Assembly (NCBI GenBank): GCA_029858505.1
Contig: JAOUEW010000004.1
Span: 131,779-195,778 of the forward strand
Direction of reading: 5' to 3'
Source: Deltaproteobacteria bacterium
GTDB lineage: Bacteria; SAR324; JACQKK01
Length of the DNA stretch: 64,000 nt
The notes under the pieces are model-generated. The model did not search any database and was not told the origin of the DNA. It worked only from the letters and a program-made list of their open reading frames with translations. Positions 7,946 to 52,372 of this stretch are shown piece after piece; the first letter of the stretch is position 1, and the number at the start of each line of letters is the position of its first letter. The position numbers were made by a program, and so were the translations under genes.

Positions 7946-10900
7946 CTATTCAGCCTGGGGGGGCAATTCTTTCAGTAGCCGCACGTCGAGGCACAAGCTT
8001 TTCAGCTCGTTGGTCAGCACCTTGAAGGCTTCGGGGATGCCCGATTCCAACACGTAGTTGCCCTTCACGATGGCCTCGTAAATGCGGTTCCGGCCCATGA
8101 TGTCGTCGGACTTCACGGTGAGCAGTTCTTGCAGGGTATAGCTGGAACCGTAGGCCTGCAGGGCCCAAACCTCCATTTCCCCGAAGCGCTGCCCGCCGAA
8201 CTGGGCCTTGCCGCCCAGGGGCTGCTGGGTAACCAGCGAATAGGGCCCAATGGAGCGGGCGTGGATTTTGTCGTCGACCAAGTGGTGCAGTTTCAGCATG
8301 TAAATATAGCCCACGGTGACCTTCTGCTCGAAGGAGTCTCCGGTCAGGCCGTCATACAGGGTCACCTGGCCGTCTTCCGGCAGGCCCGCCAGCCGGAACA
8401 GGCGGTGCACGTCGTCTTCCCGGGCGCCGTCGAACACGGGCGTGGCCAGGGTAAACCCGGTGATGTAGCGCTGGGCAAAGGTCATCATCTGGTGGTCGTC
8501 CAGCGAATCCAGGTATTCGCTCACCATCTTCGAATCGTAAATATTTTTAATGAAGTCGCGAATTTTGTTCACCGGGTGGTTGCGGGCGATCATGTCGTCC
8601 AGCTGGCTGCCCAGGGCTTTGGCGGCCCAACCCAGGTGGGTTTCCAGCACCTGGCCCACGTTCATGCGGCTGGGCACCCCCAGGGGGTTCAGCACGATGT
8701 CCAGGGGGCGGCCGTCTTTCATGTAGGGCATGTTTTCCACCGGCTCGATGCGAGACACCACGCCCTTGTTGCCGTGGCGGCCGGCCATTTTGTCGCCCAC
8801 GGAAAGCTTGCGCTTGATGGCGATGTACACCTTGACCATCCGGATGACCCCAGGGGGCAGTTCATCGCCGCGCATCAGTTTGTCGCAGCGGTCCTGGTAA
8901 ATCGACTCCAGCAGGTCCATCTGGGTCAGGGCGTTGTTGATGATCTGGGTGATTTTGGGGTTAATCTTCTCGTCACCCACGGTCACGTCTTTCCAGCTTT
9001 TGTTGGGGATGTCTTCCAGCATGGCCGCGGTGATTTTGGCGCCAGCCTTGAACAACACCTCGTTCGAGTCGGGGCGCACCACGTCGTAGAGCAACTTGTT
9101 GCCCACCAGAATGTCGCGCACGATTTTGATCAGGTTGCTGCGAACGATACGGATTTCGTCGTTGTAGTCTTTTTCGTAGCGCGCCAACAGTTCTTCTTCG
9201 ATTTGGCGGGTACGGGCGTCTTTTTCAACCCCTTTGCGGTTGAAGATCACCACGTTGGTCACCACGCCTTCAATGCCTTGAGACACCCGCAGGGAGGTAT
9301 CGCGGACGTCTCCGGCTTTCTCGCCGAAAATGGCCCGCAGCAGTTTTTCTTCGGGGTTCAGCTGGGTTTCACCCTTGGGGGTCACCTTACCCACCAGCAC
9401 GTCGCCCGGCTTTACGTAAGTGCCGATGCGGACGATGCCGGAGTCGTCCAGGTTGCGCAGGGCTTCTTCGCTAACGTTGGGGATGTCGCGGGTGATGTCT
9501 TCTTTGCCCAGCTTGGTGTCGCGGGCCACCACTTCAAATTCTTCGATGTGGATGGAAGTGAACAGGTCCTCCCGCACCACCCGCTCGGAAATCAGGATGG
9601 AGTCTTCGAAGTTGTAGCCATTCCAGGGCATGAAGGCCACCAGCAGGTTTTGGCCCAGGGCCAACTCGCCTTGGTCGCAGGAGGGGCCGTCGGCGATGAT
9701 GTCGCCCTTTTCCACCCGCTGGCCCAGGTTCACGATGGGCCGCTGGTTGATGCAGGTATTCTGGTTCGAGCGGCGGTACTTGGCCAGGTGGTAGATATCC
9801 ACGTTGGCTGGCACCACCACTTCATCGGAAGACAAGTCCACGTCGGCCTGGATGACCACCCGGCCTGAATCAATGCGGTCCACCACGCCAGAGCGCTTGG
9901 AGGCCACCAGGGCGCCGGAGTCTTTGGCAATCCGGGCTTCCATGCCGGTGCCCACCAGGGGGGCCTGGGGGCGGATCAGCGGCACGGCTTGGCGCTGCAT
10001 GTTCGATCCCATCAGGGCGCGGTTGGCGTCGTCGTGCTCCAGGAAGGGAATGAGCGACGCGGCGGCGGACACGATTTGCTTGGGCGAGACGTCCATGAAC
10101 TCAATCTCGGCCCGGTTCATCATGGTGAACTCGCCGTGATGGCGGGAGGACACCAATTCGTTGGTTAAGTGGCCCTTGGCGTCGAAGGGGGCGTTGGCCT
10201 GGGCAATTTTGAACAGGTCTTCCTCGATGGCCGACAAAAACCGGATTTCATCGCTCACGTTGCCGTCCGCCACCTTGCGGTAGGGAGATTCGATAAATCC
10301 AAAGTCGTTGATGCGGGCATAGGTGGCCAGAGAGGCGATCAGGCCGATGTTCGGGCCTTCCGGGGTTTCCACCGGGCAAATGCGGCCGTAATGGGAAGAG
10401 TGCACGTCGCGCACGTCGAAGCCCGCCCGCTCCCGGGTTAAGCCGCCTGGCCCCAGGGCGCTGAGGCGCCGCTTGTGGGTGACTTCCGACAGGGGGTTGG
10501 TTTGGTCCATGAACTGCGACAACTGGGAAGACCCGAAGAACTCGTTGATGACCGCCGCCACCGGCTTGGCGTTCACGATGTCGTGCAGCATCATGGATTC
10601 GGTTTCTTGCAGGCTCATGCGTTCTTTCACGGCCCGCTCCATGCGCACCAGCCCAATGCGGAACTGGTTTTCCAGCAGCTCGCCCACCCCGCGAATGCGG
10701 CGGTTGCCCAGGTGGTCAATGTCGTCCACAAAGCCGTCTACCCCTTCTTTCAGGGTCAGCAGATAGCCCACCGTGCGCAGAATGTCTTCTTTGGTCAGCA
10801 CGGTGTTTTCCAGGGGTTCTTCCAGCCCCAGCTTCTTGTTGATTTTCAGGCGGCCCACTTTCGACAGGCTGTAACGGTCCTCGTTGAAGAACATGTTGAA

Positions 10901-12094
10901 CAGCAGCAGCTTGGCGGTTTCCAGGGTGGGGGGGTCGCCCGGCTTCAATTTTTTGTAAAACTCAATCAGCGCTTCCGAGGTGGTGCGGGTGGTGTCCAGG
11001 GCCAGGGTTTCCCGCAGGGAATGGCCGATGGTGGAGTCGCCGATGTACATCAGGTCAATGGTTTCTTTGCCCGCTTTCAATACCTGCTCCAGCCCGTCGG
11101 GGGTTACGGGGGTGTTGGCGGGAATAAGCACGTCGCCGTTCGGGGCGGTAATGGCCCGGATGGGGTAGCGCCCCAGGATGTCATCGGTGGTGATGGGAAT
11201 GTGGGTCAGGCCCGCCTGCTGAATTTTGCGCAGGGCCAGCCGGGTGATCTTGCGCTCGGCGTGGACCAACACCTCTTTCGAGGCCGGATCCACGATGTCG
11301 TTCTGGGCCCGCTGATTGATGGTGACGTCGGGGTGCACCAGTTTGCGGAAGGTGCGCTCGGCCGGGTCTTTGTTCAAAGCACCGGTCAGGTCAATGGTTT
11401 CGCCCTTGTAGTAACGGCCCAGAATGTCTTCTTCGCTTAAGCCCAGGGCCCGCAAAAACACCGTGGCGTGGAATTTCCGTTTGCGGTCAATCCGCACGAA
11501 CAGCAGGTCTTTGGTGTCAAACTCCAGGTCAATCCACGAACCCCGCTGGGGAATGATCCGGGCGGAATAAATGTGCTTGCCGGTGGTGGTCAGCCGAGAG
11601 CGGTCGAAGAACACCCCGGGGCTTTTGTGCATCTGGCTGACGATGACCCGCTCGGTTCCGTTGATGATGAAGGAACCGGTTTCGGTCATTAGGGGCAGTT
11701 CGCCCAAGTAGATGTCTTGCTCTTTAATATCGTGAATGTGCTTGGCATCGCCCTCGCCCTCTTTTTCCCACACGATCAACCGCAGAGAGACCCGCAGGGG
11801 GGCGGAGTAGGTCACCCCCCGGATGCGGCACTCGTCGACCGTGTATTGGGGGTCGCCCAGCCGGTAGTGCACATACTCCAGGGTAGAAGAGCCGGAAAAA
11901 TCGGAAATGGGGAAAATCGAGCGAAACACCGCCTCCAACCCCTCGTTTTTGCGCTGGTCGGGGGGCAATTCTTTCTGCAAGAAGCGGTCATAGCTGTCGA
12001 CCTGGATTTCCAGCAGGTTGGGGGGGTCTACCGGGGTTTGAATCTTACCGAAGGAGTGGCGGAACCGGGAGTTGGTGAGCGTGCTCTTCTGCAT
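7946..12094 (-). CDS. rpoB: DNA-directed RNA polymerase subunit beta
   Basis: 1382 aa; conserved RpoB blocks throughout (e.g. [15 protein letters not shown], rifampicin-cluster region [30 protein letters not shown]). Confidence 0.97.
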
Positions 12095-44593: not shown

Positions 44594-44923
44594 TTACATG
44601 CCCATGCCGCCTTCTCCGCTGTCGTCTCCGCTGTCATCGGGTACCGGGGCCACGATGCCGTCATCTCCCCCATCCATGCCGGGCTCTCCGGGGGAGTCTC
44701 CCGAATAGGTGTCCCCAGCGTCTCCCCCTTCGCTCCCTCCCTCGTCTCCGCCCATGCCGCCCATGGCCCCCTGCATGGGCTTCAGGGGGTCGGGGGAATC
44801 TGTGAAAAGGGTGCTTGCCCAGGTTGTGCTGGCGGCCAGGGCCAATGCCATCATGCTTAGAAAGATGGGTTTGAATGGGCGCGGCATGGGTGTGTTAGGG
44901 TTTGGGCGGGGGGAAGGCAACAA
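44594..44923 (-). CDS. Small secreted Gly/Asp/Glu-rich acidic protein
   Basis: Signal peptide (MPRPFKPIFLSMMALALAASTTWAS) then GGMGGDEGGSEGGDAGD... low-complexity acidic tail; likely start 44888. Confidence 0.4.
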   Translation of the reverse strand: MLPSPRPNPNTPMPRPFKPIFLSMMALALAASTTWASTLFTDSPDPLKPMQGAMGGMGGDEGGSEGGDAGDTYSGDSPGEPGMDGGDDGIVAPVPDDSGDDSGEGGMGM

Positions 44924-45185: not shown

Positions 45186-46208
45186 TTAAACGCTTGAGCC
45201 TGTTTGATTGACCCGCCGGTAACGCAGGGGGGTGGTGCCATACCAGCGAATGAACGCCCGGTGAAACGAGGTGGGGTCTTGAAACCCGGTGCGCTCGGCC
45301 ACCACTTCCAGCGGCAGTTTGGTTTCTGCCAGCATGCTTCCAGCCTGTTCACGGCGCAGAGAATCTTGCAGATCATGAAAGGTGGTGGCTTCTTCTTTCA
45401 GCCGATATTGCAAGGTGCGGACGGAAACACCCAGGCGGCCGCTGACCCACTTAACATCGCGGGAAAGATGGTTGGAATCCTCTTGGCGCAGCAGGTCGAG
45501 CACGGTGTGGGCCATGCTGGTTGGTGGATGAGCCGGCAGCAGGCGCTCCAATTGACCCAGCAATTCCGAGGACAGCGTGGGGTTCGACTGGGGAGAAGTC
45601 TGTTCAATCAGGCTGGCGGGGAACAGCACTTCGTTCACGGGTTGGTGAAACTTCACCGGGCACTGAAAAAGGTTTGCGTAAAACGAAGCCTCTGCCAGGG
45701 GGCCGTGCTGAAAGCGGACTTCTAAGGGGCTGCCGTCCTTCAGGCCCAGGCTGGCAAAATAGGCCAGGTTACTGGCCACGATATATTCAAAGCTCAGGGG
45801 CAGGTCATCGGCGCTGACATGCAGGGCATCTAACCGGCAGCGGTACACGTTGCCGTCTTTGCGGGTGCTGGGGCGAATATGATAATTCGCCCGCTGGATA
45901 AACATTTCGGCCAGTTCAATACCCACCCGGGCGTTGGGCATGCTGGCCATGGCATTTCCCATCAGGCCCATGTCGGCGGGGGTCATGGCCCGACCGGTTT
46001 CCAAAACCAAGTGAGACCCCCCGGCGTGCTGAAAGAGTTTTTGCTGCACGGCCTGTTGGATGGCGGGGGATACGGGCTGGAAAGGGTTGATTTGAATGGC
46101 CCGAACCAGGGCATCGTTGCCCACAAATGGGCCGGGGTCTAGGCCCAGCCGTTCGGTTGCCCGCAGCAACGGGCGCAAAAACATCGCCGGTTCAAGGGTG
46201 ATCATCAA
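45186..46208 (-). CDS. AraC/XylS-family transcriptional regulator
   Basis: 340 aa; C-terminal dual HTH (VAERTGFQDPTSFHRAFIRWYGTTPLRYR). Confidence 0.85.
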   Translation of the reverse strand: MMITLEPAMFLRPLLRATERLGLDPGPFVGNDALVRAIQINPFQPVSPAIQQAVQQKLFQHAGGSHLVLETGRAMTPADMGLMGNAMASMPNARVGIELAEMFIQRANYHIRPSTRKDGNVYRCRLDALHVSADDLPLSFEYIVASNLAYFASLGLKDGSPLEVRFQHGPLAEASFYANLFQCPVKFHQPVNEVLFPASLIEQTSPQSNPTLSSELLGQLERLLPAHPPTSMAHTVLDLLRQEDSNHLSRDVKWVSGRLGVSVRTLQYRLKEEATTFHDLQDSLRREQAGSMLAETKLPLEVVAERTGFQDPTSFHRAFIRWYGTTPLRYRRVNQTGSSV

Positions 46209-46769
46209 AAGGCCTTGGGGATAATCCCAGAATAAGTGGGAATATTATGTAAAATAATGGCGTTATTTTTATTACCCCCAGTGATTTGATTCTTATCGTT
46301 TTTAGTCGCCCAATGTCAATAAAATTGCGCGAAATGCTAATTTCTTGCGCCTAGGGCTAATGCTTTTGCACATTTAACCAGGATATTCTGGCCGCAATAG
46401 TTGTTGGGCAGGGAAAGAGTCAGCCGATAGTGGGTCTGGGCCCTCCCTCCAGGCTTGATTATCGGCTGGCTTTTTTTATCTCAAGTTCTCTTCATCAGAG
46501 ACGCTATATGAACCTCGGCCAAAGGACCTGGGGCAATCCGCTTATAAATTCGATGTTAAATATTTGGGAGACATCTGGGTCATCGAAACAGCATCGGGGT
46601 ATAAGCGGTAAATAAGGGCATGGACCGGGTGTAGGGGTCTTTTTATTTTTTAGGAACCGTTGTATATTTCTGGTACTGTTTCTTAATCATGAGCCAAAAA
46701 ATAAGCTGAAAAGCCAGTGATAGGTCACTTTCGTGTGGGGGGCACACAAAGTTCTCGGAGGGTTCTCCC

Positions 46770-49700
46770 ATGTCGTTTATGCACAAAATTTCTTGGGTGG
46801 GGTTGTTGTTTTTGACCAGCGTGCTGTCTGGCTGCGATATTCCCAAAGTGTACCGGGGAATTGACCACCTGCTGCCCACCTGCTTGTACTGCCCGTTTGT
46901 GCAGGCCACCCCACAGACGGTGGCGGAAGACCAAGCGAACGCTCCCATCACGTTGACCGTTACCGACTCCGACTCAACGGCGGTGACCCTGGCTGTGAAG
47001 GCCACCACCGCCAACGGCACCCTGACCTGCCCGGTGAATCCGAACACCACGGCGGGGAACCTGACCTCCGGGTTTACCTTCACCTTTAACTGCACCTATA
47101 CCCCGAACCTAAATTATAACGGTGCGGATAGTTTCGACGTGGTGGCCACCGACAACGCTTTGCCCACGGCCAGCGCTTCCACCACCACCACCATTCCCAT
47201 TACCGTTACGCCGGTGAACGATGCCCCGGTGTGGGGCACCAACCCGGCCACCATGACCTTTAACGAGGACACCCCCACCACCTTCACCGTGACCGCCACG
47301 GACGTGGACGGCCCGGCCCTGACCTTTGCGTCCTTTTCCACCCCCGCCAAGGGTGGGATTGGCTGCTCGGCTCCCAGCCTGGTGGGAATCACCTATACGA
47401 CGACGTGTACGTACATCCCCGGCTTGAACAAGAACGGCGCTGACACTTTCTCCATGCAGGCATCGGATGGCACCCTCACCTCTGCCGCATCCGCCCTGAT
47501 CGGAGTGACCATCAACCCGGTGAACGACTCGCCGGTGATTAACTCTGCCCCGGCCATCAACACCCCGGAAGACACCGCGGCCACCACTACCGTGAACGTG
47601 ACCGATGTGGACGGCGTGGCCCCCACGGTGAGCGTGACCGGGGCCCCAGCCAATGGGGCGGTGGGTTGCGGCGCGGCCACCATGGTGAATGCCACCACCT
47701 GGACCTACGTTTGCACCTTCACCCCCAACTTGAATTGGAATGGAACCGACAGCTTTATTGTGCAGGCCAGCGACGGCTTGGCGTTTGTGAGCACCACCGT
47801 GGGGGTCACCGTGACCCCGGTGAACGATGCCCCGGTGATTACCGCCGCCCCGGCGCTGACCACCAATGAAGACACGGCGGGCACCACCACCGTTACCGTT
47901 ACCGACGTGGACGGCCCCACGCCCACCTTAACCGTAAGCACGGTCCCAACAAAGGGCAGTGCCGCTTGCGGCACGGCCACCGTGGTGAATGCCACCACCT
48001 GGACCTATGTGTGCACGTTGACCCCCACCTTGAACCTGAACGGGGCCGACAGCTTCGCGGTGCGGGCCTCCGACGGCACCCTCACCTCCGCGCCGTCAAC
48101 CATAACGGTGACCATCAACCCGGTAAACGACCCGCCGGTGATTAACTCTGCCCCGGCCATTACCACCCTGGAAGACACGGCAGGAACCACCACCTTGAAC
48201 GTAACCGACGTGGACGGCGTGGCCCCCACGATCACCATTACCACCGCCCCTGCCCTGGGGGGGGTGACCTGCGGCGCGGCCACCGTGGTGAATGCCACCA
48301 CCTGGACTTACCTTTGTACCTTTACCCCCACCCTGAACCTGAACGGGGCCGATAGCTTTATTGTGCAGGCCAGCGACGGGTTGGCGTTTGTGACTTCCAA
48401 CGTGGGTGTGACCATTACCCCGGTGAACGATGCCCCGGTGTGGGGCACCAACCCGGCCACCATGACCTTTAACGAGGACACCCCCACCACCTTCACCGTA
48501 ACCGCAACCGACGTGGACGGCCCGGCCCTGACTTTTGCGTCTGTGGCTGCCCCGACCAAGGGTGCCATCACCTGCGCGGCTTCCTCGGTTGTGGGTACCA
48601 CCTATACTTCAGTGTGTACGTTTACCCCCACCCTAAATCTGAACGGGGCCGACAGCTTCACCATGCGGGCGACGGATGGCACCCTCACCACGGCCACTAC
48701 CGCCGCGATAACGGTGACCATTACCCCGGTGAACGATGCCCCGGTGTGGGGCACCAACCCGGCCTCGATGACCTTTAACGAGGACACCGCCGGGAACTTT
48801 ACGGTGACCGCCACGGACGTGGACGGCCCGGCCCTGACCTTTGCGTCCTTTTCCACCCCCGCCAAGGGTGGGATTGGCTGCTCGGCTCCCAGCCTGGTGG
48901 GAATCACCTATACGGCGACGTGTACGCACAACCCTGGCTTGAACATGAACGGCGCTGACACTTTCTCCATGCAGGCATCGGATGGCACCCTCACCTCTGC
49001 CGCATCCGCCCTGATCGGGGTGACCATCAACCCGGTGAACGACCCGCCGGTGATTACCGGGACCCCGGTGAGCCAGGCCTTCAACAGCGGCGTGGCCCAG
49101 AACCTCACCCTGGCCAATATGGGAATCACCGGCGTGACCGACCCCGACATTGCCACCAATGGCGATGTGCTGACCTATTCCATTGCCGGGCAGCCCACGG
49201 GCGCCCTGGCCTCGGTTCCCTTTGCGGTTGGGGCCACCACCGGCACCATCACGGGTACGGCCTCGGGAGAGGGAACGGTTTCCCCCGAACCCTACACCGT
49301 CACCCTCACGGTGACCGACAGCGGGGGCGGGCAGGGTGCCGGATTCAATATGTCGGCGTCTGCCAACGTGCCGTTCTCGGTGACCGACGTGACCCCGCCC
49401 GTGGTGCCCGTCGTGCATGTGAATCGGTCCACCGCGGGTCTGAATGTCCTTGAAGTCACCTTTTCTCCAGGCTCGGCCGATCAATCTGGAGTGATTATAT
49501 GCCAGCACGTGAAAGGAACACCGGTTCCCACGGCAACCCTCGTGGCGGGGACGGGTGCTTGCAGTTCCGGAGTTTTAACACAGGCGGCAGCCTGGGCCGG
49601 GACCAGTTTCATCCCGGCGATCGCGGGAGGGCCTAATGATTTTGCCGTCTACGCCTATGATGAAGTGATGCTGCTGGGCCCCGGCGTGAACATTACCCTG

Positions 49701-50759
49701 ACCCCGAAAACCGTGTTTGCCGGCGGTGGTTATCAAGCCTCTTTCATGACGCCCATCACTGGAGCGTTGGGTACCTTTGCCTTGGCTTCTGGGGCAAGCT
49801 CGGCTGGGGGTGCTGTCACCGACCCCGCCGGACGGTTTGTATTCACTTCTGATTTTGCGTCCAACACCGTGAGCGCCTACAGCATTGACCAAGTCACCGG
49901 TCTGGTCACCTCCGTGGGGGTGCCCATCGCCAAAACAACCACCGGGATGACCCTTTCCCGACAAATGGCCATTGACCCTGCCGGGCGCTATTTATATGTG
50001 GTGGGTCAAACTTCCAACAGCGTGGCGTCGTTTGCCATCGGCGGTACGGGCATCCTGACTGCGGTGACCGGTTCTCCGTACTCAACGATGGATGCGACAG
50101 CCGTGGCCACGTCTCCCCAATCCCTGGCTGTCCATCCCTCCGGGCAGCTCCTGTTTGTCAACAACAGCGGAGACAAGACGATGGCGGCGTTTGCCGTTGG
50201 CGGAGGAGGGGTGCTGACCCAATTAGATTTAAATCTGGGGGTAGGCGGGCTCCAAAACTTCGCTTTGACGCCCGCTCCGATGGCTTCCCTTTCGGTGGCG
50301 GTGACCCCGGGTGGTAACTGTGCTTATGTGGGAACGCAAACCGGGGTCGGCCAATACGGCATTTATGCCTACACGGTTAACATGGCGGCCACCCCCCCCT
50401 TTACCGCCGTCACGGGCTCTCCTTTCGTCAGTGCGACTCCTCCGAATCACATGACCACCAATTTAACTGGGTCGGTTCTCTATGCGGCGGGCGGCACCAG
50501 CTTGCAGGCATTTACGGTGGACCAAGTTACGGTCCCCTGTGCCCTGACCAGTGCCGCTACTTTGGCGAACGCGACCACTTCTCCGGAAGGCTTGACCCTA
50601 GACCCCACGGGCCAATACCTGTACATTCCGAACAATCAGTATAATATTGGCGTGGACGCGTTTTCGGTGGGTGCTACCGGAACGACCCTGAGCAAAATCG
50701 CCAATTATCCCATTCTCACCAATACCATGGATATCGCGGTGATCGGGTTGTGGCAGTAA
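46770..50759 (+). CDS. Giant surface lipoprotein adhesin: ~9 tandem cadherin/Ig-like ~97-aa repeats plus C-terminal lactonase-type 7-bladed beta-propeller
   Basis: 1329 aa; lipobox LSGC; repeats punctuated by PVND(A/S/P)PV and a conserved Cys pair; C-terminal blades with recurring ..S..V.AF.I....G.LT.V motif. Confidence 0.85.
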   Translation: MSFMHKISWVGLLFLTSVLSGCDIPKVYRGIDHLLPTCLYCPFVQATPQTVAEDQANAPITLTVTDSDSTAVTLAVKATTANGTLTCPVNPNTTAGNLTSGFTFTFNCTYTPNLNYNGADSFDVVATDNALPTASASTTTTIPITVTPVNDAPVWGTNPATMTFNEDTPTTFTVTATDVDGPALTFASFSTPAKGGIGCSAPSLVGITYTTTCTYIPGLNKNGADTFSMQASDGTLTSAASALIGVTINPVNDSPVINSAPAINTPEDTAATTTVNVTDVDGVAPTVSVTGAPANGAVGCGAATMVNATTWTYVCTFTPNLNWNGTDSFIVQASDGLAFVSTTVGVTVTPVNDAPVITAAPALTTNEDTAGTTTVTVTDVDGPTPTLTVSTVPTKGSAACGTATVVNATTWTYVCTLTPTLNLNGADSFAVRASDGTLTSAPSTITVTINPVNDPPVINSAPAITTLEDTAGTTTLNVTDVDGVAPTITITTAPALGGVTCGAATVVNATTWTYLCTFTPTLNLNGADSFIVQASDGLAFVTSNVGVTITPVNDAPVWGTNPATMTFNEDTPTTFTVTATDVDGPALTFASVAAPTKGAITCAASSVVGTTYTSVCTFTPTLNLNGADSFTMRATDGTLTTATTAAITVTITPVNDAPVWGTNPASMTFNEDTAGNFTVTATDVDGPALTFASFSTPAKGGIGCSAPSLVGITYTATCTHNPGLNMNGADTFSMQASDGTLTSAASALIGVTINPVNDPPVITGTPVSQAFNSGVAQNLTLANMGITGVTDPDIATNGDVLTYSIAGQPTGALASVPFAVGATTGTITGTASGEGTVSPEPYTVTLTVTDSGGGQGAGFNMSASANVPFSVTDVTPPVVPVVHVNRSTAGLNVLEVTFSPGSADQSGVIICQHVKGTPVPTATLVAGTGACSSGVLTQAAAWAGTSFIPAIAGGPNDFAVYAYDEVMLLGPGVNITLTPKTVFAGGGYQASFMTPITGALGTFALASGASSAGGAVTDPAGRFVFTSDFASNTVSAYSIDQVTGLVTSVGVPIAKTTTGMTLSRQMAIDPAGRYLYVVGQTSNSVASFAIGGTGILTAVTGSPYSTMDATAVATSPQSLAVHPSGQLLFVNNSGDKTMAAFAVGGGGVLTQLDLNLGVGGLQNFALTPAPMASLSVAVTPGGNCAYVGTQTGVGQYGIYAYTVNMAATPPFTAVTGSPFVSATPPNHMTTNLTGSVLYAAGGTSLQAFTVDQVTVPCALTSAATLANATTSPEGLTLDPTGQYLYIPNNQYNIGVDAFSVGATGTTLSKIANYPILTNTMDIAVIGLWQ
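47130..49070 (+). repeat. Intragenic tandem repeats (~290 bp unit) with several near-identical copies
   Basis: e.g. 47215-47520 vs 48730-49035 and 48425-48530 share long runs of identical nucleotides (gatgccccggtgtggggcaccaacccggcc...gacggcccggccctgac...). Confidence 0.8.
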
Positions 50760-50785
50760 GTCGGGTGAACGGTTCTTTCTAACAA

Positions 50786-50819
50786 CACCTCTCCCCTTTG
50801 GGGAGGGGTGTTTTTTTTT
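50786..50819 (+). terminator. Rho-independent terminator after the adhesin gene
   Basis: cacctctcccc-tttg-gggaggggtg followed by T9. Confidence 0.85.
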
Positions 50820-50859
50820 GCATAGTCTCTACCCCGTACAACACCCCACCCTGGCGGCT

Positions 50860-51295
50860 TTCAGGGGGTGAGGTTTCATCAAGCGGAGAATGGACCTCAC
50901 CCCACCCGCTGGCGCGGGCTGCCCCTCTCCCGATGGAGAGGGGCAATGCTCGAATCCATCGGTTATTCTTTTCAAGCGTTCGGAAAACAAACCCTGGACG
51001 GAAGCAGGCCATGCCCAAACGCCATTAAACTCCCCCTCTCTTCGGGAATGGGGGCGGTGAGGTTTCATCAAGCGGAGAATGGACCTCACCCCGCCCGCTG
51101 GCGCGGGCTGCCCCTCTCCCGATGGAGAGGGGCAATGCTCGAATCCATCGGTTATTTTATTCAAGCGTTCGGAAAACAAACATTGGACGGAAGCAGGCCA
51201 TGCCCAAACGCCATTAAACTCCCCCTCTCTTCGGGAATGGGGGGGTGAGGTCCAAATACGGAAATCAGCGTGTAACTTGTCGGACTTAGGCAGAG
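50860..51295 (+). repeat. Dispersed repeat family B, tandem copies 4 and 5 (~180-bp units) plus a partial third unit
   Basis: Two ~95%-identical units (50868-51057, 51050-51240), each = ggtgaggt..acctcacc hairpin + cccgc-tggc-gcggg hairpin + cccctctcc-cgatg-gagagggg hairpin + core ctcgaatccatcgg..ttcggaaaacaaac..tggacggaagca. Confidence 0.7.
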
Positions 51296-51301
51296 GCTTT
51301 G

Positions 51302-52372
51302 CTAGTCTTGAATGTGATGCTGGATGGGGTGGCCGTGTTCATCCAGGTCATAGGGCCTGCCGCAGGCGCGGCAATGGGTGCGGTGTTCGTGCTTGCGGCG
51401 CAGCTTGGCTTGGTGGGCCCGCTCGCGGTTGATTTCATCCATGAACGACGAGCCCAGCAAACCGGCGGGCAGGGCAAACAAAATCACCCCGGCCACCTGG
51501 GTAAACCCCCCCACAAACCGCCCAAAGGTGGTGATGGGCACCACGTCGCCATAGCCCACGGTGGTCAGGGTGGTGACCACATACCAAAAGGACATGGGGA
51601 TGGAGCCAAACTTATCGGGCTGGGCGTGGCGCTCGGCGTAGTACATCAGGGTGCCGGACAGGGTGAGGGCGATGACCCCCAGCATGAAGGTGAGCATCAA
51701 TTCCTCTTTATGAGAGGAAATGCCCCGGCCAAGGGTGCGAAGGGCTTTGGAGTAGCGCCCAATTTTGGCCAGCCGCATAAACCGGAAAATCCGGGCCAGC
51801 CGGGCCATCCGCAGGTCGATCCCCAACAAAGATTGAATGCCAAACAGGCCCAGGTAAAACGGCAAAACGGAGATGAGGTCTATCAGCGCCATGGGGGTGA
51901 GGGCATAGGCGATTCTGCCCCCAAAGGGCCCATAGCCTTTTTCCACCGCGCACCACATCCGCATTCCGTATTCTACTGAAAATACAATTACAGAGATCAG
52001 GTCGAAGTAATGCAGCCAGGTGTGATAGCCGTGCCAGTACCCCTCGATGGTTTCCAAAATGGCCACAACCCCGTTGGCCACGATGAGCAGCAGCAGCAGC
52101 ACGTCCACCCAGGTGGTGTAGCCATGGCCCCGCTCGCCCGGTTCCAGTTGAATATACACCCAGCGGCGCATGGAGGAGATTTCCTCCTGCAGCATTTCAG
52201 GGTGAGAAAGCCCCTTCAGCAGGCGGGGCACGTTCAGGGGGATGGGCGAAGTGGAAAAGGCGGGCAGCGACGGCATGGCGGCCATGCCGGGCAATCCTTT
52301 CCGTTTTGGCGGAACGGGCGCGGGGGCCAGGGCTTTAGACCCCGTGGGTTTCTTTTTTCCCGGCTTGGCCAT
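51302..52372 (-). CDS. Voltage-gated (Kv-type, 6-TM) potassium channel with Cys/His-rich C-terminal tail
   Basis: 356 aa; S4 with Arg every third residue (RMARLARIFRFMRLAKIGR); selectivity filter TLTTVGYGDV; tail HEHRTHCRACGRPYDLDEHGHPIQHHIQD. Confidence 0.85.
   Translation of the reverse strand: MAKPGKKKPTGSKALAPAPVPPKRKGLPGMAAMPSLPAFSTSPIPLNVPRLLKGLSHPEMLQEEISSMRRWVYIQLEPGERGHGYTTWVDVLLLLLIVANGVVAILETIEGYWHGYHTWLHYFDLISVIVFSVEYGMRMWCAVEKGYGPFGGRIAYALTPMALIDLISVLPFYLGLFGIQSLLGIDLRMARLARIFRFMRLAKIGRYSKALRTLGRGISSHKEELMLTFMLGVIALTLSGTLMYYAERHAQPDKFGSIPMSFWYVVTTLTTVGYGDVVPITTFGRFVGGFTQVAGVILFALPAGLLGSSFMDEINRERAHQAKLRRKHEHRTHCRACGRPYDLDEHGHPIQHHIQD

Follow-up and report, generated by a model that had tools for sequence, protein, structure and literature searches.

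Tandem-95 proteins (NF012211; PF17963, PF17803, PF17892) have in common a period of about 100 aa, PVNDxP linkers and DVDG motifs, and thousands of database proteins match the repeats of the protein described here at 32-44% identity. The tandem-95 relatives listed are mostly 1700-2300 aa long and carry a T9SS-type gliding C-terminal domain, RTX, Fn3 or subtilisin modules, whereas the present protein is shorter than most of them and lipobox-anchored. With its 1329 aa against the 1700-2300 aa typical of tandem-95 proteins among the matches listed, the word 'giant' used in a sequence-only reading of this DNA was overstated. Among the 120 matches listed, PF10282 occurs only in the protein's own record, and a few others have NHL, SGL or Kelch propellers.

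The lactonase family PF10282 includes Pgl/YbhE (1ri6, 6nau), PpgL (6igb) and muconate-lactonizing enzyme (1jof), to which the head of the present protein is 11-16% identical. These enzymes are free proteins of about 340 aa, while the present propeller forms the C-terminal domain of a predicted lipoprotein of 1329 aa. An archaeal S-layer protein (1l0q) combines a tandem YVTN propeller with PKD domains, whereas the sandwiches of the present protein are of the tandem-95 type; 1l0q moreover has neither a lipid anchor of this type nor a long repeat stalk. The propeller lipoproteins Lp49 (leptospiral, 3bws) and BtuG (Bacteroides, 8ptf, 8blw) are structurally far less similar to the head than the Pgl family is, and they contain one and no Ig-like domain, respectively, against nine domains in the stalk described below.

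RTX/T1SS giant adhesins (LapA, MpIBP, FrhA type) resemble the present protein in the logic of their architecture only: an end anchor, a long Ca2+-dependent Ig-like extender with a variable number of units, and distal ligand-binding modules. The present protein has a lipobox instead of a retention module and lacks RTX repeats, a T1SS signal and adjacent T1SS genes. Four identities were rejected, one of them, a Pgl orthologue, being taken up with the head below. For an RTX/T1SS adhesin, no HemolysinCabind (PF00353) match was found at E <= 0.1, the chain ends with the last blade of the propeller, and ABC transporter, membrane-fusion and TolC genes were absent among the 31 ORFs scanned in the window (the whole 64-kb stretch of DNA that was analysed). 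For an autotransporter (T5SS), the Pfam matches included no autotransporter family and a propeller takes up the C-terminal 340 aa. The myxosortase-dependent M36 metallopeptidase model (NF038112) gave 88.9 bits against 1500, solely via the common repeats.

The Gene and Its Surroundings

The ORF at 46770..50759 on the forward strand is complete by translation (start ATG, 1329 aa). Its product is already public as MDH4121848.1 (P0121; 100% identity, 100% coverage), annotated as 'MAG: Ig-like domain-containing protein [Deltaproteobacteria bacterium]'. The protein is uncharacterised and fairly ordinary within the large class of tandem-95 surface proteins. It is probably exported and lipid-anchored, with an Ig/cadherin-like stalk and a seven-bladed propeller, and consists of the following features:

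46757..46761, forward strand, Shine-Dalgarno sequence GGAGG, 8 nt 5' of the ATG, read from the sequence
46770..46835, forward strand, predicted type II signal peptide, aa 1-22 (K6, hydrophobic core, lipobox L19-S-G-C22)
46833..46907, forward strand, post-lipobox motif C-D-IPKVYRG-x6-LPTC-x-x-CP, aa 22-46, from a 5-member alignment
46905..47210, forward strand, unit 0, divergent Ig/tandem-95-like, aa 46-147 (Cys87/Cys108)
47211..49031, forward strand, six PVND-delimited tandem-95/Big_9/Cadherin_4 units, 100-102 aa long, with one Cys pair per unit; units 1-6 start at 47211, 47517, 47817, 48120, 48420 and 48726
49032..49394, forward strand, divergent cadherin/He_PIG-like domain (neck part 1), aa 755-875
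49395..49724, forward strand, possible Fn3-like beta-sandwich after DVTPP (neck part 2), aa 876-985, low confidence
49725..50756, forward strand, seven-bladed beta-propeller of the lactonase/YVTN class, aa 986-1329
50784..50820, forward strand, intrinsic terminator (13-bp stem with 8 GC pairs, then a T-run)

Since the upstream gene is divergent and the terminator follows at 50784-50820, the gene is monocistronic. We give a somewhat better than even chance to a fuller reading, in which the product is a modular cell-envelope protein, exported and lipid-anchored, whose nine-domain stalk is adjustable in length and whose exchangeable head likely binds a ligand.

A leader with hairpins had been noted upstream, and together with an AraC-family regulator it had been taken to suggest regulated expression. 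The 561-bp intergenic region indeed holds one hairpin with a U-run, which is unique within the window:

46412..46477, forward strand, hairpin of about 29 bp followed by U7 (dG -41.9 kcal/mol, z -4.75)

The regulatory part of the claim fared less well, as neither the AraC neighbour nor the hairpin was found at the homologue loci examined. The leader showed no similarity to the upstream region of homologue P0123, in which the hairpin is not conserved, and no known RNA family in Rfam (the best was a miRNA family, E = 0.78); a promoter scan of the leader gave nothing above chance. The 31 ORFs scanned (30 larger ones and one of 109 aa) were all housekeeping or unrelated, and the window contained no T1SS, T5SS or Lol genes of the kind proposed as context. 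This lack of nearby surface-export machinery counts against the fuller reading.

Probable Lipoprotein Anchor and Post-Lipobox Motif

The N-terminus MSFMHK-ISWVGLLFLTSV-LSGC (Cys22) has the positive n-region, the h-region and the lipobox [LVI][ASTVI][GAS]C of a lipoprotein. The lipoprotein signal of the sequence-only reading is upheld by alignment, the lipobox being LSGC in 4/5 family members and FQGC in the fifth. Because LSGC ends a type II signal peptide, Cys22 would be acylated and would hold the protein in the membrane. Asp at position +2 keeps E. coli lipoproteins at the inner membrane. The present protein carries such an Asp behind its lipid Cys, but family members differ at this position (D, E, Q, Q, M), which makes it weak evidence either way.

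The motif directly after the lipobox is conserved in an alignment of the present protein, P0123, P0242, P0245 and P0241, with the family consensus C-x-IPKVYRG-x6-C-x-x-CP, which includes a CxxC. For aa 1-46 no Pfam or NCBIfam stretch was reported, and the motif matches no library family. The motif may serve in sorting or tethering.

Stalk and Neck

HMM searches found seven units (Big_9 1.4e-63, Cadherin_4 6e-57, NCBIfam tandem-95 6.6e-75). The tandem-95 model NF012211 scored 247.3 bits against a cut-off of 90, over 7 stretches, and Pfam Big_9 (212.2 bits), Cadherin_4 (190.5) and Cadherin_5 (134.6) all exceeded their gathering thresholds (23.6, 25.1 and 26.5), with 6-7 stretches each. The PVND linkers (n=7) start at aa 148, 250, 350, 451, 551, 653 and 755. 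Unit 0 is 35-39% identical in amino acids to the remaining units and is kept in family members. The array had been described as about nine tandem modules of about 97 aa; its tandem Ig/cadherin-like nature stands, the length does not (100-102 aa), and the count of about nine is reached only by adding the divergent cadherin-like and the Fn3-like domain to the seven units that the HMMs count. The Cys pair claimed for each module is real in 7/7 units (87/108, 199/213, 300/315, 400/415, 501/516, 602/616, 704/718). By low-confidence modelling or analogy, this conserved pair probably forms a disulfide in each tandem-95-type unit, which would fit an extracytoplasmic location. Cadherin-type Ca2+ features are present at the sequence level only, as PVNDxP linkers and DVDG motifs, both of which probably bind Ca2+, by analogy with cadherin-like domains.

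A Pfam scan of aa 755-1010 matched no family directly. Neck part 1 (aa 755-875) shares 56% identity with P0123 and 45% with P0242, and its counterpart in P0242 has Pfam He_PIG and Cadherin matches. Its AF2 model (pLDDT about 60-89) resembles cadherin EC and dystroglycan domains. Neck part 2 is tentatively an Fn3-like domain, a low-confidence assignment: alignment with 4 family members gave invariant P, AD, C, G and DE columns, homologue P0242 has a weak Pfam fn3 match at this position, and in the AF2 model of the neck (5-sequence alignment) the Fn3-like part has a pLDDT <50, so that confidence is usable only in the cadherin-like domain. The stalk would thus comprise nine beta-sandwich domains in series (unit 0, six tandem-95 units, the cadherin/He_PIG-like and the Fn3-like domain) and, if extended, might measure roughly 35-40 nm.

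Near-Identical Units and Copy Number

Unit 1 (47211-47516) and unit 6 (48726-49031) are 95.1% identical in nucleotides and 92% in amino acids. The unit at 48420-48725 is 96.7% identical to unit 1 over its first 122 nt and 68.5% over the remainder, and the max-chi2 value of this identity breakpoint was reached in 0/2000 permutations. Other unit pairs are 58-83% identical. The longest exact tracts are:

47289-47399 = 48804-48914, forward strand, longest exact intragenic repeat, 111 nt
47211-47290 = 48420-48499, forward strand, exact tract of 80 nt
47432-47503 = 48947-49018, forward strand, exact tract of 72 nt

Several units had earlier been called near-identical, and this holds for 47211-47516, 48726-49031 and the 122-nt start of 48420-48725. 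The mosaic tracts, the exact repeats of 111, 80 and 72 nt and the sharp breakpoint point to recent duplication of units or to conversion between them, as had likewise been proposed. The proposed capacity for length variation is supported indirectly, by homologues with 1, 5 or 7 units and by a Kelch-headed member whose two public assemblies are identical (0 mismatches) except for an indel of exactly two units.

That same indel resembles a collapse, and it raises the alternative that the near-identical units and their number are partly an artefact, with a short-read MAG assembly having collapsed, expanded or chimerised the array of a gene that is itself real. The repeat number of the present protein comes from one MAG contig, the single record of this protein, and exact repeats reach 111 nt. 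However, this maximum falls below common read lengths and below k = 141 (suggested by k141_ contig names in a related assembly), the units follow one another in frame at a regular 300-306 nt and without junction anomalies, most unit pairs are divergent enough (58-83%) to be easily assembled, and an independent homologue has five clean units. We therefore regard an artefact as improbable. The array is nevertheless a practical warning that MAG-derived unit counts call for long-read support.

The Propeller Head

The C-terminal domain was found to have a seven-bladed propeller fold and scored 58.0 bits with Pfam PF10282 Lactonase (threshold 21.7, E 1.3e-15), aligned over one stretch only (aa 1008-1099). 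The blade motifs quoted in the sequence-only reading occur in the translation, and its 6-phosphogluconolactonase-like propeller holds as to the lactonase-type seven-bladed fold but not as to the enzyme: identity as a Pgl orthologue was rejected, the NCBIfam equivalog NF008258 giving 38.6 bits against a cut-off of 370.

The distal head would be the working part of the protein, most likely ligand-binding (adhesive or capture) and less likely a hydrolase; a role as an adhesin is suggested by the domain types only. Many of the head's closest relatives in sequence have a lipobox or signal peptide of their own, in favour of an exported, anchored protein. An unlikely alternative, which we still weigh seriously, is a membrane-tethered periplasmic enzyme, an active lactonase or cycloisomerase similar to PpgL, in which the Ig-like repeats merely space the propeller from the membrane. 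Beside the PF10282 score above its cut-off, a profile from the head's homologues matches 3scy at 5.5e-61, and many of the nearest head homologues are exported and labelled 6-phosphogluconolactonase by their sources. Since the nearest solved structures are enzymes, the head may be catalytic. Against an enzyme speak the failed equivalog and the automatic, not experimentally based, origin of these labels. The head is 11-19% identical to solved structures, and its own sequence has a best PDB match of E = 2e-7, aligned out of blade register. The near-invariant columns in a 71-sequence head alignment are G, L and Y, without His, Asp, Glu or Arg, and no polar residue is conserved at >=90%. At a recurrent blade position with Asn as homologue consensus, the residues of the present protein are D, D, G, T, G and N. 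In addition, NHL or Kelch propellers occupy the equivalent position in homologues of the whole protein. A paper on CJ1041C describes six-bladed SGL-type lactonases and does not transfer to this head.

A Family With Different Heads

A scan of the genome collection with aa 755-1329 found no relative, and a metagenome scan gave two propeller matches only, at 27-28% identity. The middle region (aa 755-999) retrieved nothing in a word-indexed protein search, and 12 matches in an exhaustive HMMER search. The present protein belongs to a small family, new here, that shares the lipobox, the post-lipobox motif, the stalk and the neck, and that varies in unit number (1, 5 or 7) and in its propeller (lactonase-type, NHL or Kelch). 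P0123 is 60-61% identical to the present protein across anchor, stalk and neck, with 5 units, but has an NHL head unrelated to that of the present protein (head-versus-head BLASTP E = 2.9). An NHL head on 1 unit is found in P0242 and P0245, and a Kelch head in P0241 and P0247. Differently headed members co-occur, two in apparently one MAG and three in one metagenome assembly, which argues for diversified specificity.

This co-occurrence also bears on a structural role, as an S-layer-like or biofilm-matrix component instead of a specific binder, in which the propeller would mediate self-assembly, in the manner of archaeal S-layer proteins with YVTN propellers and PKD/Ig domains. Thr, Ala, Gly and Val are abundant in the protein, which is frequent in repetitive surface proteins; yet a lipid anchor and a single-copy head suit a tethered protein better than a lattice, and members with different heads side by side also count against it. 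We consider a structural component quite doubtful and retain the anchored protein with a likely ligand-binding head. Its stalk length is taken as adjustable because units recombine or convert mutually and homologues carry 1, 5 or 7 of them, and its head as exchangeable because relatives carry NHL or Kelch propellers on a common anchor, stalk and neck.

More tentatively, and with less than an even chance in our judgement, the family may be a lineage-restricted lipoprotein chassis that swaps unrelated propeller heads and changes stalk length by unit recombination. If so, it would be a cassette system displaying binding or catalytic heads at a tunable distance from the membrane, and a compact natural case of envelope proteins that swap heads and tune the length of their stalk; the short post-lipobox motif would then stand out as a candidate sorting or tethering signal. 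By itself, the gene adds an uncharacterised modular envelope protein of an uncultured bacterium to those already on record, and the comparative point is of more interest. For annotation, we suggest a lipoprotein whose stalk is of the tandem-95 type and whose propeller is of the lactonase class, not a Pgl enzyme.

As a side observation on the same DNA, the best 80 matches listed for its RpoB are 54-56% identical and come from alpha- and gammaproteobacteria.

Gene and Deposited Record

The gene at 46770-50759 encodes a protein that is already deposited under a generic name. Its exact sequence is public as MDH4121848.1 (‘MAG: Ig-like domain-containing protein [Deltaproteobacteria bacterium]’, from a 208-kb contig) and is the sole member of its 90% cluster. 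A word-indexed search with the C-terminal 468 aa as query missed this record, which the full-length query retrieved at 100% identity. Negative results from this search and from the contig index therefore need care, since they missed the protein's own record or contig. The gene and its surroundings are as follows.

46770-50759, + strand: open reading frame, 1329 aa, ATG start
50784-50820: strong intrinsic terminator after the stop codon (13-bp stem with 8 GC pairs, then a T-run)
45186-46208, - strand: AraC family gene, upstream and divergent
51302-52372, - strand: ion channel gene, downstream and convergent

A GGAGG ribosome site lies 8 nt before the ATG. With its own terminator, a divergent gene upstream and a convergent gene downstream, the gene is monocistronic.

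Anchor, Stalk and Neck

The protein is arranged, from the N-terminus, as follows.

aa 22-46 (46833-46907): post-lipobox motif of 25 residues, C-D-IPKVYRG-IDHLLPTC-LY-CP, including a CxxC pair
aa 46-147: unit 0, a divergent unit that precedes the canonical ones
aa 148-754: six PVND-delimited repeat units
aa 755-875: cadherin-like domain, first part of the neck
aa 876-985: probable Fn3-like domain, second part of the neck
aa 986-1329: seven-bladed propeller, the C-terminal head

The N-terminal sequence MSFMHK-ISWVGLLFLTSV-LSGC forms a type II signal peptide whose lipobox is canonical, with Cys22 as the residue that would be lipid-modified. Neither Pfam nor NCBIfam has a reported match over the motif that follows it (aa 22-46). 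In E. coli, Asp at position +2 after the lipid Cys marks a lipoprotein that is retained in the inner membrane. The protein has Asp at this position and would stay in the inner membrane by this rule, which may not be that of the present lineage; the residue is D, E, Q, Q and M across the family of homologues described below and is thus not conserved.

PVND linkers begin at seven positions (aa 148, 250, 350, 451, 551, 653 and 755), and both Tandem Repeats Finder and a repeat finder gave a period of 300-306 nt. An HMM scan assigned the seven units to Big_9 (1.4e-63), Cadherin_4 (6e-57) and Cadherin_5 (1.1e-39), and the NCBIfam tandem-95 model scored 247 bits against a cut-off of 90 (6.6e-75). A sequence-only reading had proposed about nine modules of about 97 aa, each with a Cys pair. 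The Cys pair was indeed found in every unit, but the array consists of seven units of 100-102 aa; a count of nine has to include two more beta-sandwich domains.

Identity between the units is mosaic. Unit 1 (47211-47516) shares 95.1% of its nucleotides and 92% of its amino acids with unit 6 (48726-49031). Units 2 and 4 share 83% identity, and the remaining pairs range from 58 to 80%. Unit 5 matches unit 1 at 96.7% over its first 122 nt and at 68.5% beyond, with a maximum chi-square breakpoint that was matched in none of 2000 permutations, and different units have stretches of 111, 80 and 72 nt in common without a mismatch. This mosaic identity is far above chance and, judged from the sequence, is the pattern expected of recent duplication or gene conversion, as the sequence-only reading had claimed for its near-identical repeats.

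The first neck domain (aa 755-875) was not directly recognized by Pfam. It is 45-56% identical to the matching region of homologues that score He_PIG and Cadherin, and its AF2 model, of moderate confidence, resembles cadherin EC and dystroglycan domains. The second (aa 876-985) is probably Fn3-like: four homologues align with it, and a weak fn3 match occurs in one of them. Its AF2 model is poor.

Propeller Head

A beta-propeller had been claimed for the C-terminus, and the head modelled as one: a model from a 71-sequence alignment has pLDDT mostly 85-96 from aa 1010 on and seven groups of four strands. The best PDB matches in Foldseek belong to the 6-phosphogluconolactonase family (4qrj, 1ri6, 3scy, 3fgb and 6igb; target-normalised TM 0.73-0.80), and the head falls in Pfam PF10282 (58 bits against 21.7). 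A tethered lactonase-type enzyme, with putative catalysis, would fit this kinship; we regard this reading as less likely than that of a binding head. When the head and its 70 nearest homologues were aligned, the near-invariant columns were Gly, Leu and Tyr of the blade motif and none was His, Asp, Glu or Arg. At a recurrent blade position with Asn as homologue consensus the protein has D, D, G, T, G and N. The head's own sequence reaches E = 2e-7 at best against PDB lactonases, in alignments that are out of blade register. The protein was rejected as a Pgl orthologue, as it scored 38.6 bits with the Pgl equivalog model where 370 are needed.

A Family with Different Heads

Among 120 listed repeat-sharing proteins, PF10282 occurs only in the protein's own record, and propeller domains of the NHL, SGL or Kelch type appear in a few of the others. 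With the neck (aa 755-999) as query, exhaustive HMMER searching of 1.84 billion representatives yielded no more than 12 proteins. Four of these, with two versions of a Kelch-headed gene counted once, form a family with MDH4121848.1. Each member combines a lipobox and the KVY-x-G ... C-x-x-CP motif with unit 0, tandem-95 units in varying number, and a neck that is He_PIG-like plus Fn3-like. The post-lipobox motif in its family form, C-x-IPKVYRG-x6-C-x-x-CP, is common to all five (MDH4121848.1, P0123, P0242, P0245 and P0241).

Table. Stalk and head of MDH4121848.1 and its database homologues (P numbers).
Protein; length; linker motifs; head
MDH4121848.1; 1329 aa; 7; lactonase-type propeller
P0123; 1107 aa; 5; NHL propeller
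P0242; 720 aa; 1; NHL propeller
P0245; 720 aa; 1; NHL propeller
P0241 / P0176; 1388 / 1355 aa; 6; Kelch propeller
P0247; 1192 aa; two units fewer than P0241; Kelch propeller

The homologues thus keep a common chassis and vary both in the length of the stalk and in the type of head. The anchor, stalk and neck of P0123 are 60-61% identical to those of MDH4121848.1, and a BLASTP comparison of the two heads found no similarity (E = 2.9). The Kelch-headed P0176 is MDH4120966.1, which appears to share the MAG of MDH4121848.1, judged by how it is labelled and by an accession number close by. P0247 and P0241, which come from two public assemblies (locus L087 6001-9579, the same gene as MDH4120966.1), match in 1192 of 1192 aligned residues, and P0247 differs by a clean deletion of 196 aa, i.e., two units, flanked by the repeated sequence ITPVNDAPSAVSGSLTMAE. 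This difference reflects either real recombinational variation or assembly collapse. It favours the capacity for length variation that the sequence-only reading had suggested, and equally the caveat of collapse that had been attached to it. That the repeat structure of MDH4121848.1 is partly an assembly artefact is given a smaller weight than the readings of a tethered binding head or a tethered enzyme. One metagenome assembly, ERZ27296335, contains P0123, P0242 and P0247 together. We tentatively propose that these proteins form a chassis family specific to their lineage, in which propeller heads can be swapped and the stalk tuned in length, with a post-lipobox motif hitherto undescribed.

Proposed Function and Known Systems

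The analysis shows how the domains are ordered, that the lipobox and post-lipobox motif are conserved, that the units have Cys pairs, that the head has a propeller fold, that identity among the repeats is mosaic and that homologues differ in unit number and head type. As to function, we lean towards a tethered stalk that presents a binding head. Acylation of Cys22 would tether the protein to the membrane, disulfides and Ca2+-stiffened linkers would give an extended stalk of roughly 35-40 nm (taking about 4 nm for each domain), and the distal propeller would capture a ligand or adhere. Such a stalk, if extended, would outreach a typical periplasm.

In design, the protein resembles RTX adhesins, which combine an anchor with a Ca2+-dependent, Ig-like extender that varies in length and a binding module at the far end. 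By HMM tests the protein belongs to the tandem-95 repeat class and the PF10282 propeller family, and it failed the tests for RTX adhesins, autotransporters and myxosortase substrates. Among propeller-plus-Ig surface proteins, Lp49 and the archaeal S-layer protein 1l0q also resemble it. A structural or matrix role is given a smaller weight than either ligand binding or a lactonase-type enzyme. Modular shuffling of such domains is common among bacterial surface proteins.

Genomic Context and Regulation

The window is ordinary chromosome, with rpoB, rpoC, tRNA synthetase genes, uvrD, prc, tmk, holB, M48 peptidase and LemA genes, as well as glycine-cleavage P subunits, hemE and fabI-like genes. 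Among the 31 open reading frames scanned in these 64 kb, none belongs to a T1SS, a T5SS or the Lol system. The 561-bp intergenic region before the gene is AT-richer than its surroundings (46-48% GC compared to 58%) and contains one prominent hairpin.

46412-46477, + strand: near-perfect hairpin of about 29 bp followed by U7 (dG -41.9 kcal/mol, z -4.75)

This hairpin is terminator-like on the + strand, lies in the middle of the divergent promoter region without a + strand gene upstream, and has no second copy in the window and no Rfam family match. It could end a small RNA or serve as an attenuator. Regulated expression had been suggested from the AraC gene and the leader hairpins. This stays speculation, because an AraC gene is absent upstream at all three homologue loci examined and the leader of P0123 has no similarity to the hairpin.

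Between the terminator and the ion channel gene, a 189-nt non-coding element occurs in two tandem copies that are 96% identical (50864-51241). The copies fold strongly on the minus strand (-84 to -89 kcal/mol, z about -4 to -5), and no further copy in the window and no Rfam match were found. The pair may represent a small-RNA gene that was duplicated, or else a MITE-like element. A 109-aa open reading frame (44594-44923, - strand), without a Pfam family, resembles a signal peptide at its N-terminus and has an acidic tail in which Gly, Asp and Ser abound (GGMGGDEGGSEGGDAGD...). The MAG is labelled ‘Deltaproteobacteria bacterium’ at NCBI. Its RpoB (rpoB at 7946-12094, - strand) is 54-56% identical to the best 80 genome matches listed, in which alpha- and gammaproteobacteria are mixed, which suggests that the lineage is deep-branching or poorly represented.
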